Positions 4,104 to 54,080 of a DNA stretch of 64,000 nucleotides are shown in pieces. Every line of letters begins with the position of its first letter. The stretch's first letter is position 1. A program made the position numbers and the translations under genes. The notes under the pieces were generated by a model that saw nothing but the letters and a program-made list of their open reading frames with translations, ran no database searches and was not told the DNA's origin. Source of the DNA: Octopus vulgaris. Its lineage: Eukaryota. The stretch covers positions 22,692,001-22,756,000 of the forward strand of contig OX597835.1 of the NCBI GenBank assembly GCA_951406725.2, given 5' to 3'.

Positions 4104-4227
4104 GTAAGATGATTCTCTTTGTTTTGGTTTGGTTTGAAAATGAAACAAAAAAACAAAATTGTCTCAACAACATAAGTAAACAACCTTTTACGTTGGTTTT
4201 AGAAGCGTTGAATGTGTATCGTATAAA

Positions 4228-4535
4228 ATAATAATAATAATAATAATGAAATTATTGTATACAGTGCTCAGGTGCACCACAACTTGTCAGAAAGTGCATA
4301 TAAAGTACATGCAGTAATGTAGAAATGTCTGGAAAGTGAACATGCTTGTGTGTGTATGGAGGGGAGAAAATCAAGTGTAGTGTTGGCGAATCTCAGGAAG
4401 CATGGAAGTTTTGAAGGATGCAGTGCTCCGACAACTAACAACCGATGCCGGCAGTTTGTTCCACGCTTCAGCAACTCTCAGTGTGAAAAAATATTTCCTG
4501 AAGTCATGGGAGCTGTGCTGTTTTCTTACTTTTGT
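4228..4535 (-). mobile_element. CR1-type LINE 3' fragment
   Basis: KVRKQHSSHDFRKYFFTLRVAEAWNKLPASVV..FK plus (ATT)n tail; same family as 68-505. Confidence 0.75.
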
Positions 4536-8490: not shown

Positions 8491-8814
8491 CTAGATGTTG
8501 GTTTTGTCAAAGTTACTGCTCTTTGTCTGTCTGCCATTGTCATAATCACCATCACCGTCATCATCGTCATCATCATTATTCTTATTCTCGTAATTGCCAA
8601 GTTAAAAGCAGGGTAGTGGAGATGATGTGTTGCCGAGGGGTAACAAGTTGTATATCAGTTCCTTCCTATGATCCATTAGCTCAGAAATCTAAATGTAGTA
8701 TGCTGAAATAGTAATAAATACCAGTGGTACCTTTGGGGTTTGATTTCATCATCAACTCTTTGGAAAATTTTGAACAAAAACTGATTGCTATTATTTTAGA
8801 AACTTATTATTAAT

Positions 8815-9292
8815 ATTATAGCATGCTGAGCAAAATGCTTAGCAGTATTTTGCCCATTTTGTTCTGAGTTCAAATTCTGCCAAGGTCACCTTTACTTTTC
8901 ATCCTTTCGGGGTTGATAAATTAAGTACCAGTCAAATACTAGGGTCGATGTAATCAACTATCCTTCTCTCCAAAATTTCAGTAGAAAACATCATTAAAGC
9001 GACGAGCTGGCAGAATCATTAGCATGCTGGTCTCCCCCAAATTTCAGGCCTTGTGCCTATAGTAGAAAGGATTATTATTATTATCATCATTAAATGTCAG
9101 CATGTCAGACAAAATGCCTAGTGGTGTTTCTTCTGGCACTTTACGTTTTGAGTTCAAATTCTGCCGAGGTCAACTCTGCCTTTCTTCCTTTTGGGATCGA
9201 TAAAATAAGTGCCAGTTGAACACCAAGGTCAGTGTAACCAACTTACCATTCCCCTAATATTGCTGGCCATATGCCAAAATTTGAAACCATTA
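8815..9292 (+). mobile_element. Cluster of degenerate family-B SINEs
   Basis: Repeated gagttcaaattctgcc...cctttcggggttgataaa..agtaccag cores separated by (ATT)n. Confidence 0.75.
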
Positions 9293-10206
9293 TTTTTATC
9301 ATAGAATGTTATAATTTTTTATCTCCAATTATAACTTATCAAAGCCACACACACATTGTTTGTGTGTGTGTGTGTGTGTGTTAGTATATAATTGTCTGTT
9401 CCAAATGCATGCTATTTGAGTAAGTGAAACTGAAGTTGTAATGTTCATGCCTCTCCCTAGAGTTTTATTAGTGAGGGGTCTTAGGTGAAGTGTAACCTTA
9501 GCTAAAATTTGAAACCACATCAGCTGTAGTCTGCAGTATGTATCAGCTAGACTAGTACCAACAGTATTCATTTGTATTAACGATAATGACACATACTTAA
9601 GACTACAGATGTTGAGAAGTCCCCAGTACGTCACTGGTACTATTTTTATCTATTCCCAAACAGACAGCAGACGAAAATAATAATAAAAAATAATTTTTTT
9701 TTTTTTTTTTTTGCAGTCATAATTTTTTTTCAGTTGCATGGTACCCTACCTGTCACCATTCTTTAGTTGCAAAATCTTGCTGTCCCTTGATGTCTCTGAT
9801 TGAAATTTGGGTCCAGCTTGTATAAACTAAAGCAAATCCTAATAATAATAAAAATAATGCCAATGATAACCAGTTTTCCTCACTTCTTAGGTTGAATGGA
9901 CGTGAGATGAGTTACATTTTGAATTCAAGCTGATAGTTTAAATGCATTCTTAGCCTGATGCACGTGTGTGTAATATACATGCATGTACCCACGCATATTT
10001 GGGGAAATCGCCCACAGTAGACTAGCATCCTATCCTGTGGAAAATGAAGTTTGCTTCTGATCCACTTAAGCACTAAACGGATCAGAACTAAACACCAACT
10101 CAGTCAACACCTGTGCTTTGGAGAAAAGGGTTGGGTTTGAAACCTTGGTATATGTGTGTATACATTCACACAAGTAAATATATTTATACACCTGTGTCTA
10201 TATATA

Positions 10207-14047: not shown

Positions 14048-14402
14048 TATATATATATATATATTTCTACATTTGAGTTACAACCTCCCTTGATGATGTA
14101 AGCATGACATACAAATGAAATAAGCAGGAACAAGTGGAATAGTATAGTAATAATACTCCTTTCTACTATAGACCGAAGGCCTGAAATTTGGGGTTGGGGG
14201 GCTGGTCGATTACATTGATCCTAGTGCTTGACTGGTACTTACTTTATCGGCCCCAAAATAACAAAAGGTAAAGTTGACCCTAGCAGGATTTGATCTCAGA
14301 ATGTAGAAAACCAGAATTGTTGCTCAGCATTTTGTTTTGATGTACTAACAATTCTGCTGCTCACTGCCTTAGTTGCAGTAGTAATATTTATTCCTGCTTA
14401 AA

Positions 14403-14678
14403 AGTGGATGTGGTGTTAGAACACAGAATACTGCAATAGTTACCACAAGAGAACCTTTCATGTGGACTTGTGGTGCATATAAGCACTCTTGTTTATATCG
14501 CTAGCAGGAGACAATCACTGGCATTGCCACTACCAGATGACAGGATTTCAGCCTTCTTTGGCCTTGTCAATGGTAGACACCCGACCACTGGAAATAGTAG
14601 TGACCGCTCCACTAGCAATAGTCATAGAACCACAGTGCCTAATTGCTGTATTCTGTGTTCTTTCACAACATCCATTTT
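14403..14678. mobile_element. MITE with ~33-bp imperfect TIRs
   Basis: tggatgtggtgttagaacacagaatactgcaat versus attgctgtattctgtgttctttcacaacatcca. Confidence 0.65.
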
Positions 14679-14734
14679 TTAAGGCCTTGTGCTTTTAGTA
14701 GAAAGGATTATCATCATCCCCCTAAACCCTTCTA

Positions 14735-17576
14735 GAAGAGTGAGCTGGCAGAATCATTAACATGTCGGACACAATACATAGCAACAGATCTTCCAGCCTT
14801 TTACATTCTGAGTTCAAATCCTGCTGAAGTGAACTTTGTCTTTCATCCTTTGGGGGTGGGGTTTCATAAAATAAGTATCAATTGAACACTGAGAGCTCCC
14901 TTCCACAAAATATCAGGCTTTCTGCTAGAAAGAATTATTATTTAGGCGGTAAACCCGCAAAATGCTTAAGCGAGCATTTCGTCCATCTGAGTTCAAATTT
15001 TGCTGAGGTCAACTTTGCCTTTCATCTTTGCAGGGTTGATAAAATAAAAGTACCTGTTGAACCCTGGGGTTGAGATCAGCCAATTCCCTCCCCAGAATTA
15101 CTGGCCTTGTGCCAAAATTTGAAATCGTTGGCTCAGTAGAACAAAATGCTTAGAGGTATTTCTTCTTGCTCTTAATGTTCTGAGTTCAAATTCTGCCAGG
15201 GTTGACCTTTCCTTTTATCCTTTGGGAGGATGGTGGTGGTTCAATAAAATAAAGGACCTGTTGAACACTAGGGGCTGATGTAATTATCCCCACCCCCAAT
15301 ATTTCAATCCTTGCACCCATAGTAGAAAAAATTAATATTACTATCGTAAAGAAGGAAGCAAATTGTTAGAAAGCACCAGACTAAATGCCTTACAAGCATA
15401 AAGTGTTACTTCTTTCCTGGGTTCAAATCACGCCAAAATCAATATATTCTTTACTTATGGGCAATAAAGTAAATACCTGTAATATACTGGTCAACTCAAC
15501 ACCCTTATCCTACTATAAATTCTTCGGGGATATGAACTCAGAAAATGGTTCTTCTTAAATCAGCTTGTCAAACTGAAGTACCAGTAATGTGCTCAGGATT
15601 AGACAATGTGATGTACAGTTCTGCCTTTCAAAACAGTTTTGTACCTAAGTCTTTTAGCCTTAATCAAATGCTTAATTTCACTGACCTATGACCAAAGGCA
15701 TTAAAGCTGTAATCGTCCAGTTTGAGGACATCTTTGTGGTTGTTTGACCAGCTAGAAATAGCAGCGAAATTCCCCCTCCTCTTTTTCCTTCCCCCATGTC
15801 TTAGAGTTTTAGTTGAGTAAGAATAAAATATGGCAAGAATATTCACCCCAGCAAAGGTGGTGGCCATGCTGGATTACAATTGAGTCTCAGATTATTTTCC
15901 TCGTAAAATTAGTCTGCTTGCATTTATGTAATAATTAAGAAACATTGCTATTATCATTTGTATTTGGACTTAGTGGAGATTGCAGGAGTGTTGGGGGAAA
16001 TGCCCTGCAACAATCATGCCAGCTCTTTACTTTGAAGTTCAAATTCCTTTCATCCTTTTAGGGTCCATAAAATAAGTACCAGTTGAGCACTGGGTTGATG
16101 AAATCAACTGTTGCCCCTTCTCCTCAGATTGCTGGCCTTGTGCCAAAATTTGAAACCATTATTATTAAGGTGGCAAGCAGACAAAATACTTAATGGTGTT
16201 TCATCTGTCTCTATTCTGACTTGAAATGTTGTTACGGTTGACTCTACCTTTCATCCCTTTCGGGGTCAATAAATTAAGTACCAGTTGAACATGTAATCAA
16301 CTAGCCCCCTCCTACCAATTTTCAGGCTTTGTGCCTATAGTAGAAAGATTATTATTAATTGGTAGAATTGTTAGTGTTGGATGAAATTCTTTCCAGAATT
16401 TGCTCCAACTTGTGTTCTGAGTTCAATTCTTGCTGAGGCCAACTTTACCTTTCTTCTCGTTAGGATCAATTAAACGAAGTACTATAGTTAATTTAATTGA
16501 TTATTCATCTCCAATCAAATTTCTGGCCTTGTGCCTATGTAAGTTATTATTATTGTTATTATTATTAAAGTGGTGAGCTGGCAGAATCATTAGCATGTTG
16601 GATGGAATACTTTTGGGTATTTCACATGGCCGCTACATTCTGAGTTCAAATTTCACTGAGGTTAACTTTGCCTTTCATCCTTTTGGGGTTGATTAAATAC
16701 GTACCAGTTATGCACTGAGTTAATGTAATCAACTTAATCCCCTCCCCCAAGTTGCCCTTGTGGCAAAAATTTGAAATAATAATAATTATTATTATTAAGG
16801 TAGTGAGCTGGCAGAATTATTAGCACACTGGATGAAATGCTTAATGGTATTTCGTCTGTCTTTATGTTCTGAGTTCAAATTCCGCCAAGGTCGACTTTGC
16901 CTTTCATCCTTTCAGGGTTGATAAATTAAGTACCAGTTACGCACTGGGGTTGATGTAATCGACTTAATCTGTTTGTCTGTCCTTGTTTGTCCTCTCTGTG
17001 TTTAGCCCCTTGTGGGTAGTAAAGAAATAGGTATTTCGTCCGTCTTTACGTTCTGAGTTCAAATTCTGCTGAGGTCGACTTTGCCTTTCATCCTTTCGGG
17101 GTCGATAAATTAAGTACCAGTTACGCACTGGCGTCGATGTAATCGACTTAATCCGTTTGTCTGTCCTTGTTTGTCCCCTCTGTGTTTAGCCCCTTGTGGG
17201 TAGTAAAGAAATAGGTATTTCGTCTGTCTTTACGTTCTAAGTTCAAATTCTGCTGAGGTGGACTTTGCCTTTCATCCTTTTGAGGGTTGATAAATTAAGT
17301 ACCAGTGAAGCACTGGGGTCGATATCAAACTAGTCTCTTCCCCTCAAATTTCTGGCCTTGTGCCTTTAGTAGAAAGGATTATTATTATTATTAAGGCCGT
17401 GAGCTGGCAGAATTGTTAGCATGCTGGGTGAAATGCTTAGCAGCAATTCATCCGAGTTCAAATTCCATTGGGGTCGACTTTGCCTTTCATCGCTTAAGGG
17501 TCAATAAAATAAGTACCGATTGAATCGACTAGCCCCCTCCCCTAAAATTTCAGGCCTTGTGCCTATAGTGGAAAAG

Positions 17577-17608
<32 letters not shown>

Positions 17609-17830
17609 GGGCAGCGAGCTGGCACGTTCGTTAGCTTGCTGAGCAGAGTAATTAACCGTATTTTGTGTGTCTTTACATTTTGTTGTTCAAATTTCGTCAG
17701 AGTCAACTTTGCCTTTCATCTTCTCACTGTTGATAAAATAAGTACCAGTTGTGCACTGGGGGCCAATGTAATCAACTTAGCCCTTCCCCTCAAAAACACT
17801 GCTGGCCTTTTGTCAAAATTTGAAATTATT
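14735..17830 (+). mobile_element. Head-to-tail array of family-B SINEs (about a dozen or more copies)
   Basis: Repeated gagctggcagaatc...gagttcaaattc...gcctttcatcc...ggccttgtgcc...(ATT)n units; internal ~180-bp tandem duplication at 16850-17310. Confidence 0.85.
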
Positions 17831-18303
17831 AATGACCCCCACCCCACACCTCCATTCACCTTCTGTGTAAATTTGTGGATATCTCATTTTATAATTTCTT
17901 TACTTGGACAAGGCATGAATGCCTTGTAATCTGCCTTTTGTAATTATGTAAGCAACTTACTGTTTAACACCTTATACCTCACTATCCCTGAACCAGCAGA
18001 CCTATATAATCACAGGCATTCCAGTCATGACCATCCCATTTTATATTCATGCATTGTGTATCTAAGTGCTACATTGACTGAGTCCTTGTTTTCTCAAGAC
18101 AGTAATGTGTGATTTAAGGCAGGTTTGGCTGCTATTTCTTGCGTAGAGGCTCCCTTGTTGGCTGTATCGATATCGGTTGTGTTGTTTGCATGAGTCACTA
18201 TAGTAACAGTTTATTAATTTTTTTTTTCCTTCATTCATACTCTCTGCAAAACATGATGATGATGATGATGATGATGATTGATAATTTAATCTGGTGGTTC
18301 TCC

Positions 18304-22231: not shown

Positions 22232-23372
22232 CCGTATAGACTCGTGTAAAAGTCGAATTTCTTAGACCATTTTTTAAGGTCAAATTTATGGGGTCGACTA
22301 TTGCATGGATACCACTTTTGAGGGGCTAAAATTCAAGCTAGAATCCGAAGTATTGCATCAGCAGCAGAAACCCAACTGATCTTTAGCGAATAAAAGCAAA
22401 AACACAATGAATTCCAGTAATATAACCAATTCCATGCATCAAAACACACGTCCTGGTCAATAACAAAACCCATAAACCAGGCCATGTATAGCCCCTTATA
22501 AATATTTGCACTTTCTCTTTTAGGTGTACCCCTCAAACTTAACAGACTAGCTGAGTGAAACCAATTTATATCTCATAATTATGTTCTGTTACCACCTAAA
22601 TCTCCACGAGGCTCCGACAGGGGATGGTGGTGATCCCTGCTGTACTCTTTCACCACAATTTTCTCTCACTCTTACTTCCTGTTTCTGTTGTACCTGTATT
22701 TTAAAGGGCCGGCCTTGTCACTCTCTGTGTCACGCTGAATATCCCCGAGAACTACGTTATGGGTACACGTGTCTGTGGAGTGCTCAGCCACTTACACGTT
22801 AATTTCACGAGCAGGCTGTTCCGTTGATTCGGATCAACTGGAACCCTCGTCGTCGTAACCGACGGAGTGCTTCAGTTCTGTTACCACTGGTAACATATCT
22901 ACCCAGTACCAGCATGCCACTGCCTACCGTAATACGGTGCATGCAGCTGATACCTACATGGCGTGTTTCACATCATAACTCTTCAATAACTTTATACTAT
23001 TTTCATATTTATGGTTAAAGTCACACTCATCACAAGTGTATTATGGCACAGCATATTAGTGGTACATTTTTATTTCTAATTAATTAAATGCAAATTGATG
23101 ATTTAAATACCAAAGTTGTAAAAAGAAGCAGAAGCGCAACAGTCTCCACCGAAAACGTTTTCTTCTTCGTCGCTGTAAGGCAACCACACAATTTTGTAAC
23201 AGTGTTATTCCTACATACGGGATAAAACGGTACCTTGACCCACAAATGCTGCCCCGTTGTTCGTGAAATACTAAGGTCAACTGTTATACAGGGCCTATGG
23301 AAAATTCCCCATTTTTTTGCCAAAAATAGGGGGTCGACTTTTACATGAGATTGACTATTACACGAGTATATA
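22232..23372. mobile_element. pogo/Tc1-type non-autonomous element with a nested SINE fragment (22590-22870)
   Basis: TIR ccgtatagactcgtgtaaaagtcga versus ttgactattacacgagtatata, with subterminal ggggtcgact motifs. Confidence 0.55.
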
Positions 23373-23700
23373 ATAGTAATGAAATTATTGTATACAGTGC
23401 TCAGGTGCACCACAACTTGTCAAAAAGTGCGTATAAAGTATATGCAGTAATGTACAAATGTCTGGGAAGCGAACAATGTATGAGTCAGATACATGCCTGT
23501 GTGTGTATGGAGTGGAGAAAATCAGGTGTAGTGTTGGCGAATCTCAGAAAGCATGGAAGTTTTGAAGGATGCAGTGCTCCGACAACTAACAACTGACACA
23601 GAGAGTTTGTTCCATGCTTCAGCAACTCTCAGCATGAAAAAGTGTTTCCTAAAGTCATGAGAGCTGTGCTGTTTTCTGACTTTGTAAATATGTCCACGGG
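23372..23700 (-). mobile_element. CR1-type LINE 3' fragment
   Basis: TRGHIYKVRKQHSSHDFRKHFFMLRVAEAWNKL; same family as 4228. Confidence 0.8.
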
Positions 23701-24317
23701 TGGAGTTCGAAAAGGTGCTATATATGGCAGTCAATGACTCATGTCTTCTAAAATACGCATATGGATTAATTTGGGGAAAATCACGAATGTGTGATCGACG
23801 CAGCTTAAATTGGCAAGATCTAAAGCTCAAACTTCTACCGATCAATTTTCCCGAAGCCAAAGTTAAAATTCCAAGGGAGATAATTAAAAACTAAGTGGTC
23901 TCCCCTGACAGTCTCTAACCATTCATTCGTATAGTATATCAGCTGTTTCTAATGTTTCCTATTTGTATCACAAACGGGTTTCATGAAAGAATTTTCCCCT
24001 CAGGTCGGGGGGGAGGGACTACGCTTTTATTTGCTTAGATATCAGTTGTGCTTGTGTGTGTGTGTATGTCCCCCAACATTGCTTGACAACCGAAGCTGGT
24101 GTGTTTACATCCCCGTAACTTAGTGGTTCGGCAAAGAGACCGATAGAATAACTACTAGGCTTACAAAGAAGAAGTCCTGGGGCCAATTTGCTTGACTAAA
24201 GGCGGTGCTCCAACATGGCCACAGTCAAAATGACTGAAGCAAGTAAAAGAATAAAAGTATATATATTTATATAAATACTTTTCAGTGCTAATTGTTAACA
24301 AGGGAAAAATACACTCA

Positions 24318-36817: not shown

Positions 36818-36869
36818 AAAACACACACACACACATACACACAGAGCAACAGACATTTGTACATTACTG

Positions 36870-36931
36870 CATATACTTTATACACACTTTCTGACAAGTT
36901 GTGGTGCACCTGAGCACTGTATACAATAATT

Positions 36932-36977
<46 letters not shown>
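36870..36977 (+). mobile_element. CR1-type LINE extreme 3' end with (TTA)n tail
   Basis: ctgacaagttgtggtgcacctgagcactgtatacaataatttca(tta)n. Confidence 0.8.
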
Positions 36978-37934: not shown

Positions 37935-38007
37935 AGTCCGGATACTTATTGATCAGACCTCGTATATTTACATTTGACGGATATTTGTCTTCATCTTATT
38001 TGTTGTT

Positions 38008-38053
38008 AACACAACGTTTCGGCTGATATACCCTCCAGGCTTCATCAGGTGTC
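38008..38053 (-). ncRNA. Minimal type-I hammerhead motif (left arm)
   Basis: GACAC-CUGAUGA-A-GCCUG(GAGGGUAUAU)CAGCC-GAAA-CG-UU|GUGUU; one mismatch in stem II. Confidence 0.6.
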
Positions 38054-38116
38054 TCGGGGGAAATTTCAAACCTGAGTTCTCATTCCTAAGGTATTTTTCG
38101 ATGTTATTATTATTTA

Positions 38117-38182
<66 letters not shown>

Positions 38183-38412
38183 TCATTGCCTGGAATCGAA
38201 CTCGGAATCTTGGGGTTCGTAGCCCGCGCTCTTAACCACTACGCATATGCCCGTAGTGGTTAAGAGTGCGGGCTACTAACCCCAAGATTCCGAGTTCGAT
38301 TCCAGACAATGACCTGAACAACAACAACAACAACAATAATAATAATTATGATAATAACAACAACATCGAAAAATACCTTAGGAATGAGAACCTAAGTTCG
38401 AAATTTCCCCAA

Positions 38413-38458
38413 GACACCTGATGATGGCTGGAGGGTATATCAGCCGAAACGTTGTGTT
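38413..38458 (+). ncRNA. Minimal type-I hammerhead motif (right arm)
   Basis: GACAC-CUGAUGA-U-GGCUG(GAGGGUAUAU)CAGCC-GAAA-CG-UU|GUGUU: intact core, 5-bp stems I and II, palindromic ACGU stem III. Confidence 0.72.
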
Positions 38459-40164
38459 GACAACAAATAAGATGAGGACAAATGTACGTCAAATGTAAAT
38501 AATGTACATAATTCCTCATCTCTTAAATATAGAACTCGTATATTTATATTTGTGTAAAGGTCACGGTTGGAATGCTTCCAATCATAAATTTGTCCAATCG
38601 GAGCTAACTTGAAGCTAAATAACAACTCAAACACATTTAACAAATCCAATGTATGTAGTCTCTTAACAGGCTAGAAATAGCAGTCAAGTCTCCTTCAAAC
38701 CGTCTTAAGTAAAGTATACACACACACACACATACACACACACACATGCATACACACACACACATGCATACACACACACACATGCATACACACACACACA
38801 TGCATACACACACACACATGCATACACACACATACATGCATACACACACACACACACACAACACCTCCATTCATATCACGCCTCCACAATCCTTATCAAA
38901 CCATCGTCGCTGTAGCCGCCGCCACTCAAATAGCAGCAGCAGCAGCCACGGCAGCAGCAGCAGCAGCAACAGCAACAGCGGTAGCAGTAGCAGTAGAGGC
39001 AGCAGTTAACGACATCAGCAGTAACACTTCCTTTCCTTCTACGTCCTTCCCCCCTCCCCTCGGTCATTTCCACTGTACATTCCTCCTCCTCCTCCTCCTC
39101 CTCCGCCTCCCACTCCCGTCCTTACAGCTTCTTCCAGCTCACCTTAACGTCCTTGTTTACTAATACAAGCAAGCAGCTAACACGCGCGCACGCACACACA
39201 CAAGCGTGCACTCATATTAATACATAGTTACATTGATATGTATACGCAGACACGCGCGCGCGTGCGTGCGCGCGTGCATACACGTCCAACGCATTCTCAC
39301 TCACGCATCATATCCATATTTACACACTGACATGTGCAACCATATACACATACATACATACATACATACATACATACATACATACATACATACATACATA
39401 CATACATACATAAATACATACATACATACGTACATACATACATGCATACATACATACACACATACATACACACATACATACATACATACATACATACATG
39501 CATACATACATACATACATACATACATACATACATACATACATACATACATACATAAATACATACACGTGTCTCTCAGACAATCAGATAAACACACACAT
39601 TTAAACATACACACACACACACATCCTCAGATGTTAAACACATATTTATACACGCATATTCACATTTGCGCACATACGTATGAAGACACACACACACACA
39701 CACGTCCGCACGCATTCGCACTAGAATCCGATAGACAGATACACACCCACCCATTCACAGTAACAACACCATCACCGTTACTATAAATAATGGTAAACCA
39801 TACAGTCATAATAACTCTGTTTCTGCTGACATTGATATCTGTTAAGTCTGGCAGTGAACACGTTAAACCTATTGACAGTGACAGCCGAATCTGGCATCGT
39901 GCAGTGTAAAAAAAAATCATAAATAAATCACCTGACTGGTTTTGTTTTTTAATAAAATTCATCAGGGATCGTTCACCTCATTGCTTAAATAGCCAAGTGC
40001 ACAACTACATTGTTTGAATTATACACACGAATGATTGCTGCTTTTGTTATTTGAAAGAAAAAACAAGAACTTTTACGTAATTGTGTTCGGTTGATGACCA
40101 GGAAATTAATAACAAGTAGCATATATACAGACAAGCAAGAAGTAAACAGACACCTTTAATTTTC

Positions 40165-53164: not shown

Positions 53165-54080
53165 TATATATATATATTTATATAAATGAGGGTGCACAGT
53201 AGCACCGGCGATTGCTGGAAATGAGAGTCGAGATTTAACTCGGAAAGCCACGAACATATCATTATAATACCTTATTGTATTGATAATATACACTTTAACT
53301 GTTTTGAATTTTAGCGCTTGCTCATCAACGGTTTTTCCTTCACATAAACTATTACGAGGCAGGCTGTCTCCTTTAACTCTGAGTAGTAGTGAAGGCCTCT
53401 GACGAGAAACAAGATCATTCTGATCAAATTTCGAAATCACGTGATATGGCTTTATCTAACTATTTCATTCTGTGAGTTTATCTCACAAGGGAAGATAATG
53501 AATGTTTTTAGCAAGCGTAGTTGAAGTTTTATAATTAGGAGTTTTGAAAGAGTTTAAATGTGCACGATACCTACGTTTGAAATCTATGATGTTACCAATA
53601 TGTGGTCCATGTGTTAATACATTTGTATATAACATTTTTACAAATACAAAATCCCGCCAGGGGCCAAGATTCAGGATCTCGACAGTTACAGTTTTTTCTT
53701 CAACTAATTAGATGTATGGTCTTCAGTTTTGGTGGAATTAGAGGCAATAGGTTGTTGTGACGCCAAGGAGGAGCGTTTAGATTGTCGGAATCTGTTTTAG
53801 ATAGGACGAGTACATTAGGATTGCAAGTTACAACTACTTTGCCAGTGGAGTCAGGTCTAAAATGATGTACTTTATTTGTCCTCGTGTGTATAATTCCTTG
53901 AGATTGAATTTTAGATATGTTAATTGATCCCTATTCTCGAACTTAGAAATGATTTCTGCTTTCGTTATTCATGCTTTCATGCTTTTCCGCTTTGAATATG
54001 TGAAGCTCAAGTAGGTACCCCAAACCGTTTTGAAATATAGTCAAAGCTGATCTGTAAATTCTCAATTTTTAACGTTTTAA
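53165..54080 (-). mobile_element. Penelope-like element fragment (Cys linker + GIY-YIG endonuclease)
   Basis: Minus-strand translation across frameshifts: KVVVTCNPNV ... NCNCRDPESWPLAGFCICK(N)VIYKC ... IG ... FKRRYRAHLNSFKTPNYKTSTTLAKNIHYL, the typical PLE CNCR..CPL.G.C..V.Y / YIG..FK.R..H..SF signature. Confidence 0.75.
53391..53453 (+). ncRNA. Hammerhead-like motif antisense to the PLE endonuclease C-terminus
   Basis: AAGGCCU-CUGACGA-GAAA(CAA GAUCA UUC UGAUC AAA)UUUC-GAAA-UCACGUGA-UA|UGGCUU; core intact, U-U mismatch at the first stem-I pair. Confidence 0.45.

Follow-up and report, generated by a model that had tools for sequence, protein, structure and literature searches.

A Penelope-like element of Octopus vulgaris with a tRNA-Arg-like head, a candidate Pol III promoter, in its terminal repeat

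Layout of the locus

The analysed window is a stretch of 64,000 nucleotides from the 2.8-Gb, microsatellite-rich genome of Octopus vulgaris, which comprised 227 contigs. It held a unit of two head-to-head arms, each consisting of a tRNA-like head, an (AAT/AAC)n linker and a minimal hammerhead. The unit was flanked by a 12-bp target-site duplication. The left copy (37959..37970) has its last 6 nt in common with the end of the left arm, and the right copy (38535..38546) has its first 2 nt in common with the end of the element. The inverted arms, the 12-bp direct repeat, a hammerhead in both arms, a predicted cut after 38453 and the absence of poly(A) had been described in a first-pass annotation and were borne out by the sequence.

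The left arm (37965..38254, minus strand) was assigned as a pLTR copy with a short 3′ end at ORF nt 118. Its 5′ end lay 2 nt ahead of the tRNA-like start. It comprised a tRNA-Arg-like head at 38178..38252 with a B box and an A box, the latter with one base deleted here, and an (AAT)n linker at 38104..38177. The start of a PLE ORF was detected by tblastn at 37965..38083, frameshifted and with its ATG at 38083. The minimal type-I hammerhead of this arm, also on the minus strand, was located at 38008..38053, with a C-C mismatch in stem II and a predicted cut after 38013. The head-to-head junction was an overlap of 3 nt between the arms at 38252..38254. The arms had been annotated as meeting at 38243/38252, and the supposed 8-nt loop corresponds to the 5′ terminus of the left head.

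The right arm (38252..38536, plus strand) was assigned as a pLTR copy with the long 3′ end and was without the first 10 nt of the head. Its tRNA-Arg-like head at 38252..38317 was 5′-truncated into the A box, with the B box intact, and was followed by an (AAC/AAT)n linker at 38318..38364. Codons 1-51 of an 835-aa RT/GIY-YIG ORF were present at 38384..38536, with two stops in this copy and 88% identity to the family protein (tblastn, E 2e-22). The body had been regarded as non-coding and turned out to be the start of the PLE ORF. The minimal type-I hammerhead was located at 38413..38458, with a predicted cut after 38453. The PLE 'tail' at 38506..38536, present in the right arm only, is the stretch between two preferred 3′ ends. 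The arms were unequal and differed by 35 nt at the 3′ end, the right being longer. Arm-to-arm identity was 63/66 in the head and 127/139 in the body, and two non-consensus bases were common to both arms.

The head had been labelled tRNA-Arg(ACG)-like in both arms. It was indeed tRNA-Arg-like; the ACG anticodon was found in the left arm only, and the anticodon region read CTACTAA in the right arm and in 73/74 family arms. Naming the anticodon of the head was rejected, because ACG is confined to the left arm and the score of Arg(TCT) came close to that of Arg(ACG). On contig C2, more than 20 matches to the tRNA-Arg(ACG) anticodon arm were clustered at 211887736-211907122, many of them about 206 bp apart.

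Other repeats were also present in the window. A tandem array with a 90-bp period and units about 98% identical occupied 1888-2780. A further family of dispersed repeats, one end of which is partly inverted, was represented by four copies at 66-331, 4223-4532, 23367-23717 and 36850-36959. Dense clusters of repeats of about 190-300 nt in both orientations lay at 8796-9302 and 14143-17831. A different, very abundant short repeat, also in inverted pairs with arms of about 300-600 nt, was found at L003:200-922 and at many window positions.

Affiliation with an autonomous Penelope-like element

The sequence upstream of the head was common to several copies and encoded a GIY-YIG-type C-terminus. This C-terminus was 39% identical to protein P0093, through the GIY-YIG domain. 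Among loci picked by the endonuclease, the unit lay downstream in 25/30 and included the head in 22/30. Walking upstream from the GIY-YIG region revealed RT motifs and Pfam RVT_1 (E 6e-5 and 2.5e-6). From the other side, hammerhead and tail ran straight into the ORF start in 5/30 loci picked by the N-terminal region of the RT. One locus, L136, was a whole pLTR-ORF-pLTR copy.

The family consensus was scripted from 43 aligned spans, many of which were the same locus fetched twice. It held an uninterrupted ORF of 835 aa, with RT followed by a C-terminal GIY-YIG domain. The order of the unit was head, (AAT)n, ATG, hammerhead, tail, remainder of the ORF, stop, 29 nt and the next head. The ATG was located 70 nt ahead of the predicted hammerhead cut, and hammerhead and 'tail' fell within the first 51 codons of the ORF. 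Median identity of copies to the consensus was 93%, and no copy with an intact single ORF was found. The family protein had 1016 homologues, with RT-family domains in those among the matches listed, and was about 40% identical to proteins of Anolis and Branchiostoma. From this identity and the domain order we infer a placement in the Penelope/Poseidon clade.

The partial-tandem pLTR-ORF-pLTR arrangement with an ORF that starts inside the pLTR is that of an EN+ PLE. An RT/GIY-YIG ORF, an inverted truncated copy with tail and target-site duplication, and a minimal hammerhead, all found here, likewise belong to EN+ PLEs. The window unit is thus almost certainly made of pLTR copies of an autonomous element of the Penelope/Poseidon type. 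The first-pass annotation had recognised a Penelope-type hammerhead and Penelope-type inverted integration, both of which match PLE architecture. It had proposed a comparison of the 3′ part with the pLTRs of autonomous PLEs in the same genome, and the 3′ part is the start of a PLE ORF. Its view of the unit as a parasite with a borrowed PLE tail did not hold, as the whole unit is pLTR: the head follows the ORF, and hammerhead and tail run into it.

A second PLE-related region, at 53165-54080 of the window, contained a hammerhead-like motif with a palindromic stem III at about 53392-53462 (plus strand). Inverted to it lay a short frame that resembled a GIY-YIG C-terminus by eye and had no Pfam hit. 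Relatives of this remnant sat within (TA)n runs and frequently formed inverted pairs. Because it gave no tblastn match to the protein of the window family, it probably belongs, judged by sequence, to another PLE family. The remnant was rejected as partner of the window unit, a role suggested for it earlier.

The hammerhead motif

The hammerhead core of both window arms comprised a 5-bp stem I, one extra base after CUGAUGA, a 6-bp stem II and GAAA; stem III was loopless and palindromic. A 26-nt hammerhead pattern had 3165 exact matches in the genome and none for the reversed control, and the motif is therefore not due to chance. Conservation of the core, on which the earlier reading had depended, was seen in the family consensus, where the motif was present and stems I and II fold. 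Near-identical hammerhead architecture was found in 25 related PLE loci. Of 110 unselected arms, 39 had an intact core and 24 had the core and both stems. The core decayed at the pace of its neighbours. Rfam returned neither a hammerhead nor a tRNA match in the element, only microsatellite noise. In standard RNA-seq no read ended at the predicted cut site, a library type unlikely to show such ends. For the consensus, a genuine hammerhead is predicted.

An inverted pair that activates the ribozyme as a dimer was rejected. Such a head-to-head layout had been thought to supply the hammerhead dimer, and its geometry places the two hammerheads on opposite strands, facing away from each other. Modelled homodimers of the motif gave no clean stem-III dimer. 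The hammerhead was probably not needed for forming the window insert. As a separate observation, arms joined to the ORF often carried a small deletion in stem III across the cleavage triplet region, more commonly than arms that start at the head. In that region, about 15/47 ORF-joined arms had gaps at three adjacent columns.

The tRNA-like head and transcription of the element

The family head was identical to genomic tRNA-Arg(ACG) at 51/73 positions, and 0/2000 shuffles were as good. Arg isotypes were the top 7 of 38 genomic tRNA sequences, a set that sampled seven isotype labels and left out Ile, Asn and most others. The consensus head carried A and B boxes, which fit the textbook consensus. 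ARAGORN made no tRNA call in the window element, and a relaxed ARAGORN scan of control PLE loci returned pure noise. No B-box match was found downstream of the ORF in 52 related loci.

The sequence TTTT is a Pol III terminator. It did not occur in the 2817 nt of the consensus. This absence had P values of 0.03 by synonymous permutation, 0.002 by resampling and 0.007 by base composition, and failed to reach significance with Markov models of first and second order (P 0.07 and 0.21). In 30 family copies the observed/expected ratio of T4 was 0.27, compared with 1.46 in 79 related PLE loci of other organisms that served as controls. T4 was absent from 14/30 family copies and from the matched ORF part of 4/79 controls. 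From the ORF end to 100 nt past the hammerhead, T4 was present in 24/25 related pLTRs, whereas the non-coding pLTR of the family was T4-free. These statistics have to be read with the family counting as one lineage and not as 30 tests. All of the T4 controls came from other organisms, and with a distant PLE protein as query 30/30 loci found in the Octopus vulgaris genome were this family. G4 runs were also depleted (0.22 versus 0.63), and the closest relative, L265, had a T4-free ORF part yet no tRNA head. Three related PLE ORFs of other organisms, at L265:2593-4736, L279:597-2446 and L303:2828-4677, ran for about 2 kb without TTTT, but their pLTRs were rich in T and a tRNA head was absent. 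L303 had 0 TTTT where 7.5 were expected.

The 5′ ends of copies were located in 78 arms that contained the 3′ part of the head, with 0 as the first G of the head and two ORF-joined arms with a broken head left uncounted. Twenty-three arms started inside the head. The other 55 reached the head start, and 43 of them stopped there, 39 at -8..+3 and 4 over a palindromic junction, while 12 continued into the ORF. In the read-through RNA a predicted hairpin spans -14..+9 at the head start. A TATA-like motif was located upstream of the head at -34..-30 and an initiator-like motif at -19..-15. Other explanations of the 5′ ends have to be weighed because the hairpin lies at the same spot and a TATA-like motif is present; by its predicted fold, the hairpin could on its own determine where the 5′ ends fall. 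PLEs that have no tRNA head are also known to carry palindromes at the 5′ end of the pLTR (PMC3846280).

Two RNA-seq runs of a related organism gave 9688 and 7305 matching reads, unstranded and from a 6% sample of each run. The reads covered the family, including the ORF-to-head junction, with embedded copies dominating. For 76-82% of the reads the match gave way to dissimilar sequence, which is what embedded copies would produce, and neither run had a pile-up of starts or ends on the family.

The best explanation of these data, with a probability of roughly 0.55, is an autonomous PLE with a tRNA-Arg-like, Pol III-type promoter head in its pLTR and with the short arms as its by-products. Pol III transcription of the coding element itself is rated, from the sequence features above, at a little over even. 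A fuller account would have an autonomous coding retrotransposon switch to a tRNA-Arg-derived Pol III promoter, with a 2.7-kb transcript purged of oligo-T and internal priming that sheds tens of thousands of SINE look-alikes. It is tentative and falls somewhat short of an even chance.

The strongest competitor is an ordinary Penelope element, driven by Pol II, whose 3′ UTR at some time took up a piece of a tRNA or SINE, which would make the head a passenger. Copies would then end at the head start through a hairpin that stops reverse transcription or through a nearby Pol II start. PLE identity and insertion mechanism would be unchanged from the Pol III reading. The hairpin and the TATA-like motif fit this proposal. 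However, a hairpin block would be expected at the 3′ base (+9), and the peak of 5′ ends is at -8..+3. The first base of the captured fragment must also have hit the boundary by chance, and the non-coding pLTR is T4-free as well, unlike nearly all of its relatives. A captured passenger is considered less likely than a Pol III-type promoter head.

Short copies

The insertion survey comprised 94 of the first 100 listed 26-nt matches, all on contig C1. They fell in 90 stretches, and 88 loci were left after 2 overlapping duplicates had been dropped. Head and body were found together throughout the genome, as the first-pass annotation had supposed. The head was present in 60/88 hammerhead-picked loci among the matches listed, and most head-picked loci had the body. 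The head went with no other body: in 29 head-picked loci, with the query's own dropped, the PLE body lay within 400 nt in 23, further off in 4 and was absent in 2. Exact copies of the 26-mer were carried by 11/110 unselected arms. Because there were 3165 exact matches and so few unselected arms hold the 26-mer, the genome has roughly 30,000 arms, with a wide margin.

Like SINEs, the short copies have a tRNA-derived head with A and B boxes. They are without the LINE-shared 3′ end or the poly(A) or simple-repeat tail of SINEs, their 3′ ends lying inside the PLE ORF start. A non-autonomous lineage of their own was not evident, as the head follows the ORF in most endonuclease-picked loci and SINE-specific variants were absent. 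The comparison of 63 ORF-joined with 79 head-start arms revealed no column with a different majority base. Two subfamily sites occurred in similar ratios in both sets, A/G at 30/27 versus 38/39 (p 0.86) and T/A at 27/15 versus 45/28 (p 0.85), and linkage of the two sites was equal. Several columns differed at p < 0.02 through extra gaps and decay in the ORF-joined arms. Divergence from the consensus was 6.3% in ORF-joined and 4.8% in head-start arms, a comparison confounded by the head-start set being partly picked by similarity. On the simplest reading of these sequences, the short arms would have been copied from the 5′-terminal part of the autonomous RNA.

A weaker form of the first-pass proposal, namely a true SINE lineage that depends on the PLE and exists beside the autonomous element, with solo head-start copies transcribed by Pol III and re-copied in trans, would account for the 43 to 12 excess of head-start over ORF-joined arms and for the abundance suggested by the rough estimate. 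The promoter boxes and the two priming sites are also preserved in solo copies, divergence from the consensus is lower in head-start arms, and Adineta pLTRs are able to mobilise unrelated sequence in trans (PMC3846280). Against such a lineage, the short copies have no majority-base difference and contain both subfamilies at an equal ratio, and the divergence gap is confounded by the choice of short arms. By analogy only, the Anolis Poseidon template needs about 55 nt of ORF past the priming site (PMC11167929), which solo arms are without. Such a lineage is improbable.

Insertion pattern and mechanism

Head-to-head arms were present in 51/88 loci among the matches listed. In the same set, 48/51 inverted pairs had one long and one short 3′ end and 3/51 had two short ends. 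The 3′ ends clustered at ORF nt 123-129 and 152-165. A flank word of at least 8 nt was shared as target-site duplication by 34/51 pairs among the matches listed, compared with 7.9% of mismatched flanks. Adineta Pen2a (PMC3846280) and PLEs in general (PMC8557442) are described as inserting in the same long/short inverted pattern, which also agrees with the in vitro behaviour of Anolis Poseidon (PMC11167929).

At a U/A subfamily site the two arms agreed in 34/34 pairs, 25 with U and 9 with A, where about 13 mismatches were expected from independent templates. The arms disagreed in 9/43 pairs at a second diagnostic site, which is a CpG and was set aside. Arm-to-arm difference within pairs was 8.8% versus 8.9% between random arms (P 0.23), and shared variants were enriched (P 0.0005). 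Such values are expected of one template per insertion followed by long neutral decay; a single template is supported by the full agreement at the U/A site, although about a quarter of pairs carry A.

The preferred reading, an autonomous PLE with a Pol III-type head, suggests the following course. The RNA would start about 6 nt ahead of the head, cross the 2.7-kb unit, which has no terminator, and enter the repeat that follows. By analogy with Anolis Poseidon, for which two internal RT start sites and two-strand cleavage are reported in vitro (PMC11167929), the PLE protein would nick both strands of an AT-rich target. Reverse transcription would be primed at two internal sites, at about ORF nt 123-129 and 152-157 (analogy to the same element, PMC11167929). 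Priming in the 5′ repeat of the RNA would reach the RNA end after about 290 nt and yield short, SINE-like arms. Priming in the downstream repeat would yield a copy that extends into the ORF. Joining of two cDNA ends by microhomology would leave the arms inverted, one ending long and the other short, in a duplication of 8-13 bp. Short arms would be by-products of the autonomous element, and they are probably unable to be copied again because they end at a priming site.

Formation of the pairs by fold-back, in which a palindrome at the 5′ end of the RNA let one cDNA snap back and serve as its own template, concerns this step only and is compatible with either promoter model; template variants common to both arms, palindromic junctions in some copies and the self-priming proposed for Adineta PLEs (PMC3846280) agree with it, but in many pairs (the window, L037, L050 and L184) neither arm contains the other, one having more 5′ sequence and the other a longer tail, which makes fold-back highly improbable. 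Whether or not Pol III is involved, the family backs the in vitro PLE mechanism by genomic counts, with both strands primed at two sites (48/51) and one template (34/34). Some of the 'SINE' annotation in the Octopus vulgaris genome would be PLE terminal repeat.

Comparison with known systems

Octopus OR1/OR2 and OK SINEs were reportedly described by Ohshima and Okada in 1994. OR1 or OR2 are listed as CORE-SINEs in two papers (PMC4824008, PMC4758252). A repeat annotation of an octopus genome lists Penelope and SINE families, and its available text holds no description of a tRNA-headed pLTR (PMC13282606). The literature covered contained no account of a PLE whose promoter is tRNA-derived or of Pol III type; Repbase, Dfam, SINEBase, the library of PMC13282606 and supplements lay outside this scope and may hold the family.

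The octopus family shares with Penelope/Poseidon PLEs, namely Anolis Poseidon PAc (PMC11167929) and Adineta Pen2a (PMC3846280), a single ORF of about 840 aa with RT followed by GIY-YIG. Also shared are an ORF start within the pLTR, overlap of ORF and hammerhead, two 3′ ends separated by about 30 nt, an inverted 5′ pLTR, a one-sided tail, an 8-13-bp duplication and AT-rich targets (PMC11167929, PMC3846280). In that comparison, a pLTR that begins with a tRNA-derived A/B-box head and a sense strand without T4 runs were particular to the octopus family. Described PLEs have TATA/Inr-like or LINE-like internal promoters (PMC11167929, PMC3846280), the latter in D. virilis Penelope (PMC2377424). Minimal hammerheads of metazoan PLEs were described by Cervera and de la Pena in 2014 (PMC4209133). 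They and the octopus motif have in common the extra base between positions 9 and 10.1, the G10.1-C11.1 pair, the palindromic 15.2-16.2 and type I, and no difference from the account in that source was seen in the sequence motif, which was all that was compared (PMC4209133).

Animal non-LTR retrozymes are likewise short hammerhead repeats related to PLE pLTRs (PMC7229834; bioRxiv 10.64898/2026.07.22.740005). They form head-to-tail arrays and circular RNAs, and the available text of these sources describes no tRNA head (PMC7229834; bioRxiv 10.64898/2026.07.22.740005). A non-LTR retrozyme was rejected for the window copy, which is inverted and coding-derived; tandem headless units were seen only in L018 and L048. 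At L018:525-1496, five head-to-tail headless units (linker, hammerhead and tail, with a period of about 190 nt) adjoined a full arm. This array is retrozyme-like and derived from the family pLTR.

The PLE features of the octopus family are all known, and the Pol III step is the interesting part. In the standard account, SINEs depend on Pol III and parasitise LINEs that are driven by Pol II. If true, the Pol III step would be a route by which a SINE is born from its own autonomous element. Since a Pol III RNA is uncapped, another route to translation would be needed; how an uncapped 2.7-kb RNA is translated, and which role a hammerhead that overlaps the start-codon region plays, would be the questions to follow.

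Schistosoma Sm-alpha/Sj-alpha are likewise short, abundant repeats in which a hammerhead comes after a promoter of Pol III type (review, PMC6765202). They are non-coding tandem repeats with no autonomous partner named in the available text of that review, whereas the octopus unit is part of a coding element and mostly inverted (PMC6765202). The likeness suggests that the same origin of Sm-alpha as that of the octopus pLTR is worth checking. With the TRIMp3 elements Cassandra, Helenus and Ajax, the octopus element shares a tRNA- or 5S-derived promoter, in the octopus a candidate one, inside the terminal repeat (Kojima 2024, PMC10886601). TRIMp3 are non-autonomous LTR elements of less than 1.3 kb, whereas the octopus element is a PLE and autonomous in structure (PMC10886601). 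Kojima 2024 states that Pol II is obligatory for the autonomous partners of TRIMp3 (PMC10886601). If true, transcription of a coding PLE from a tRNA promoter would break this stated rule of Pol II-only autonomous partners.
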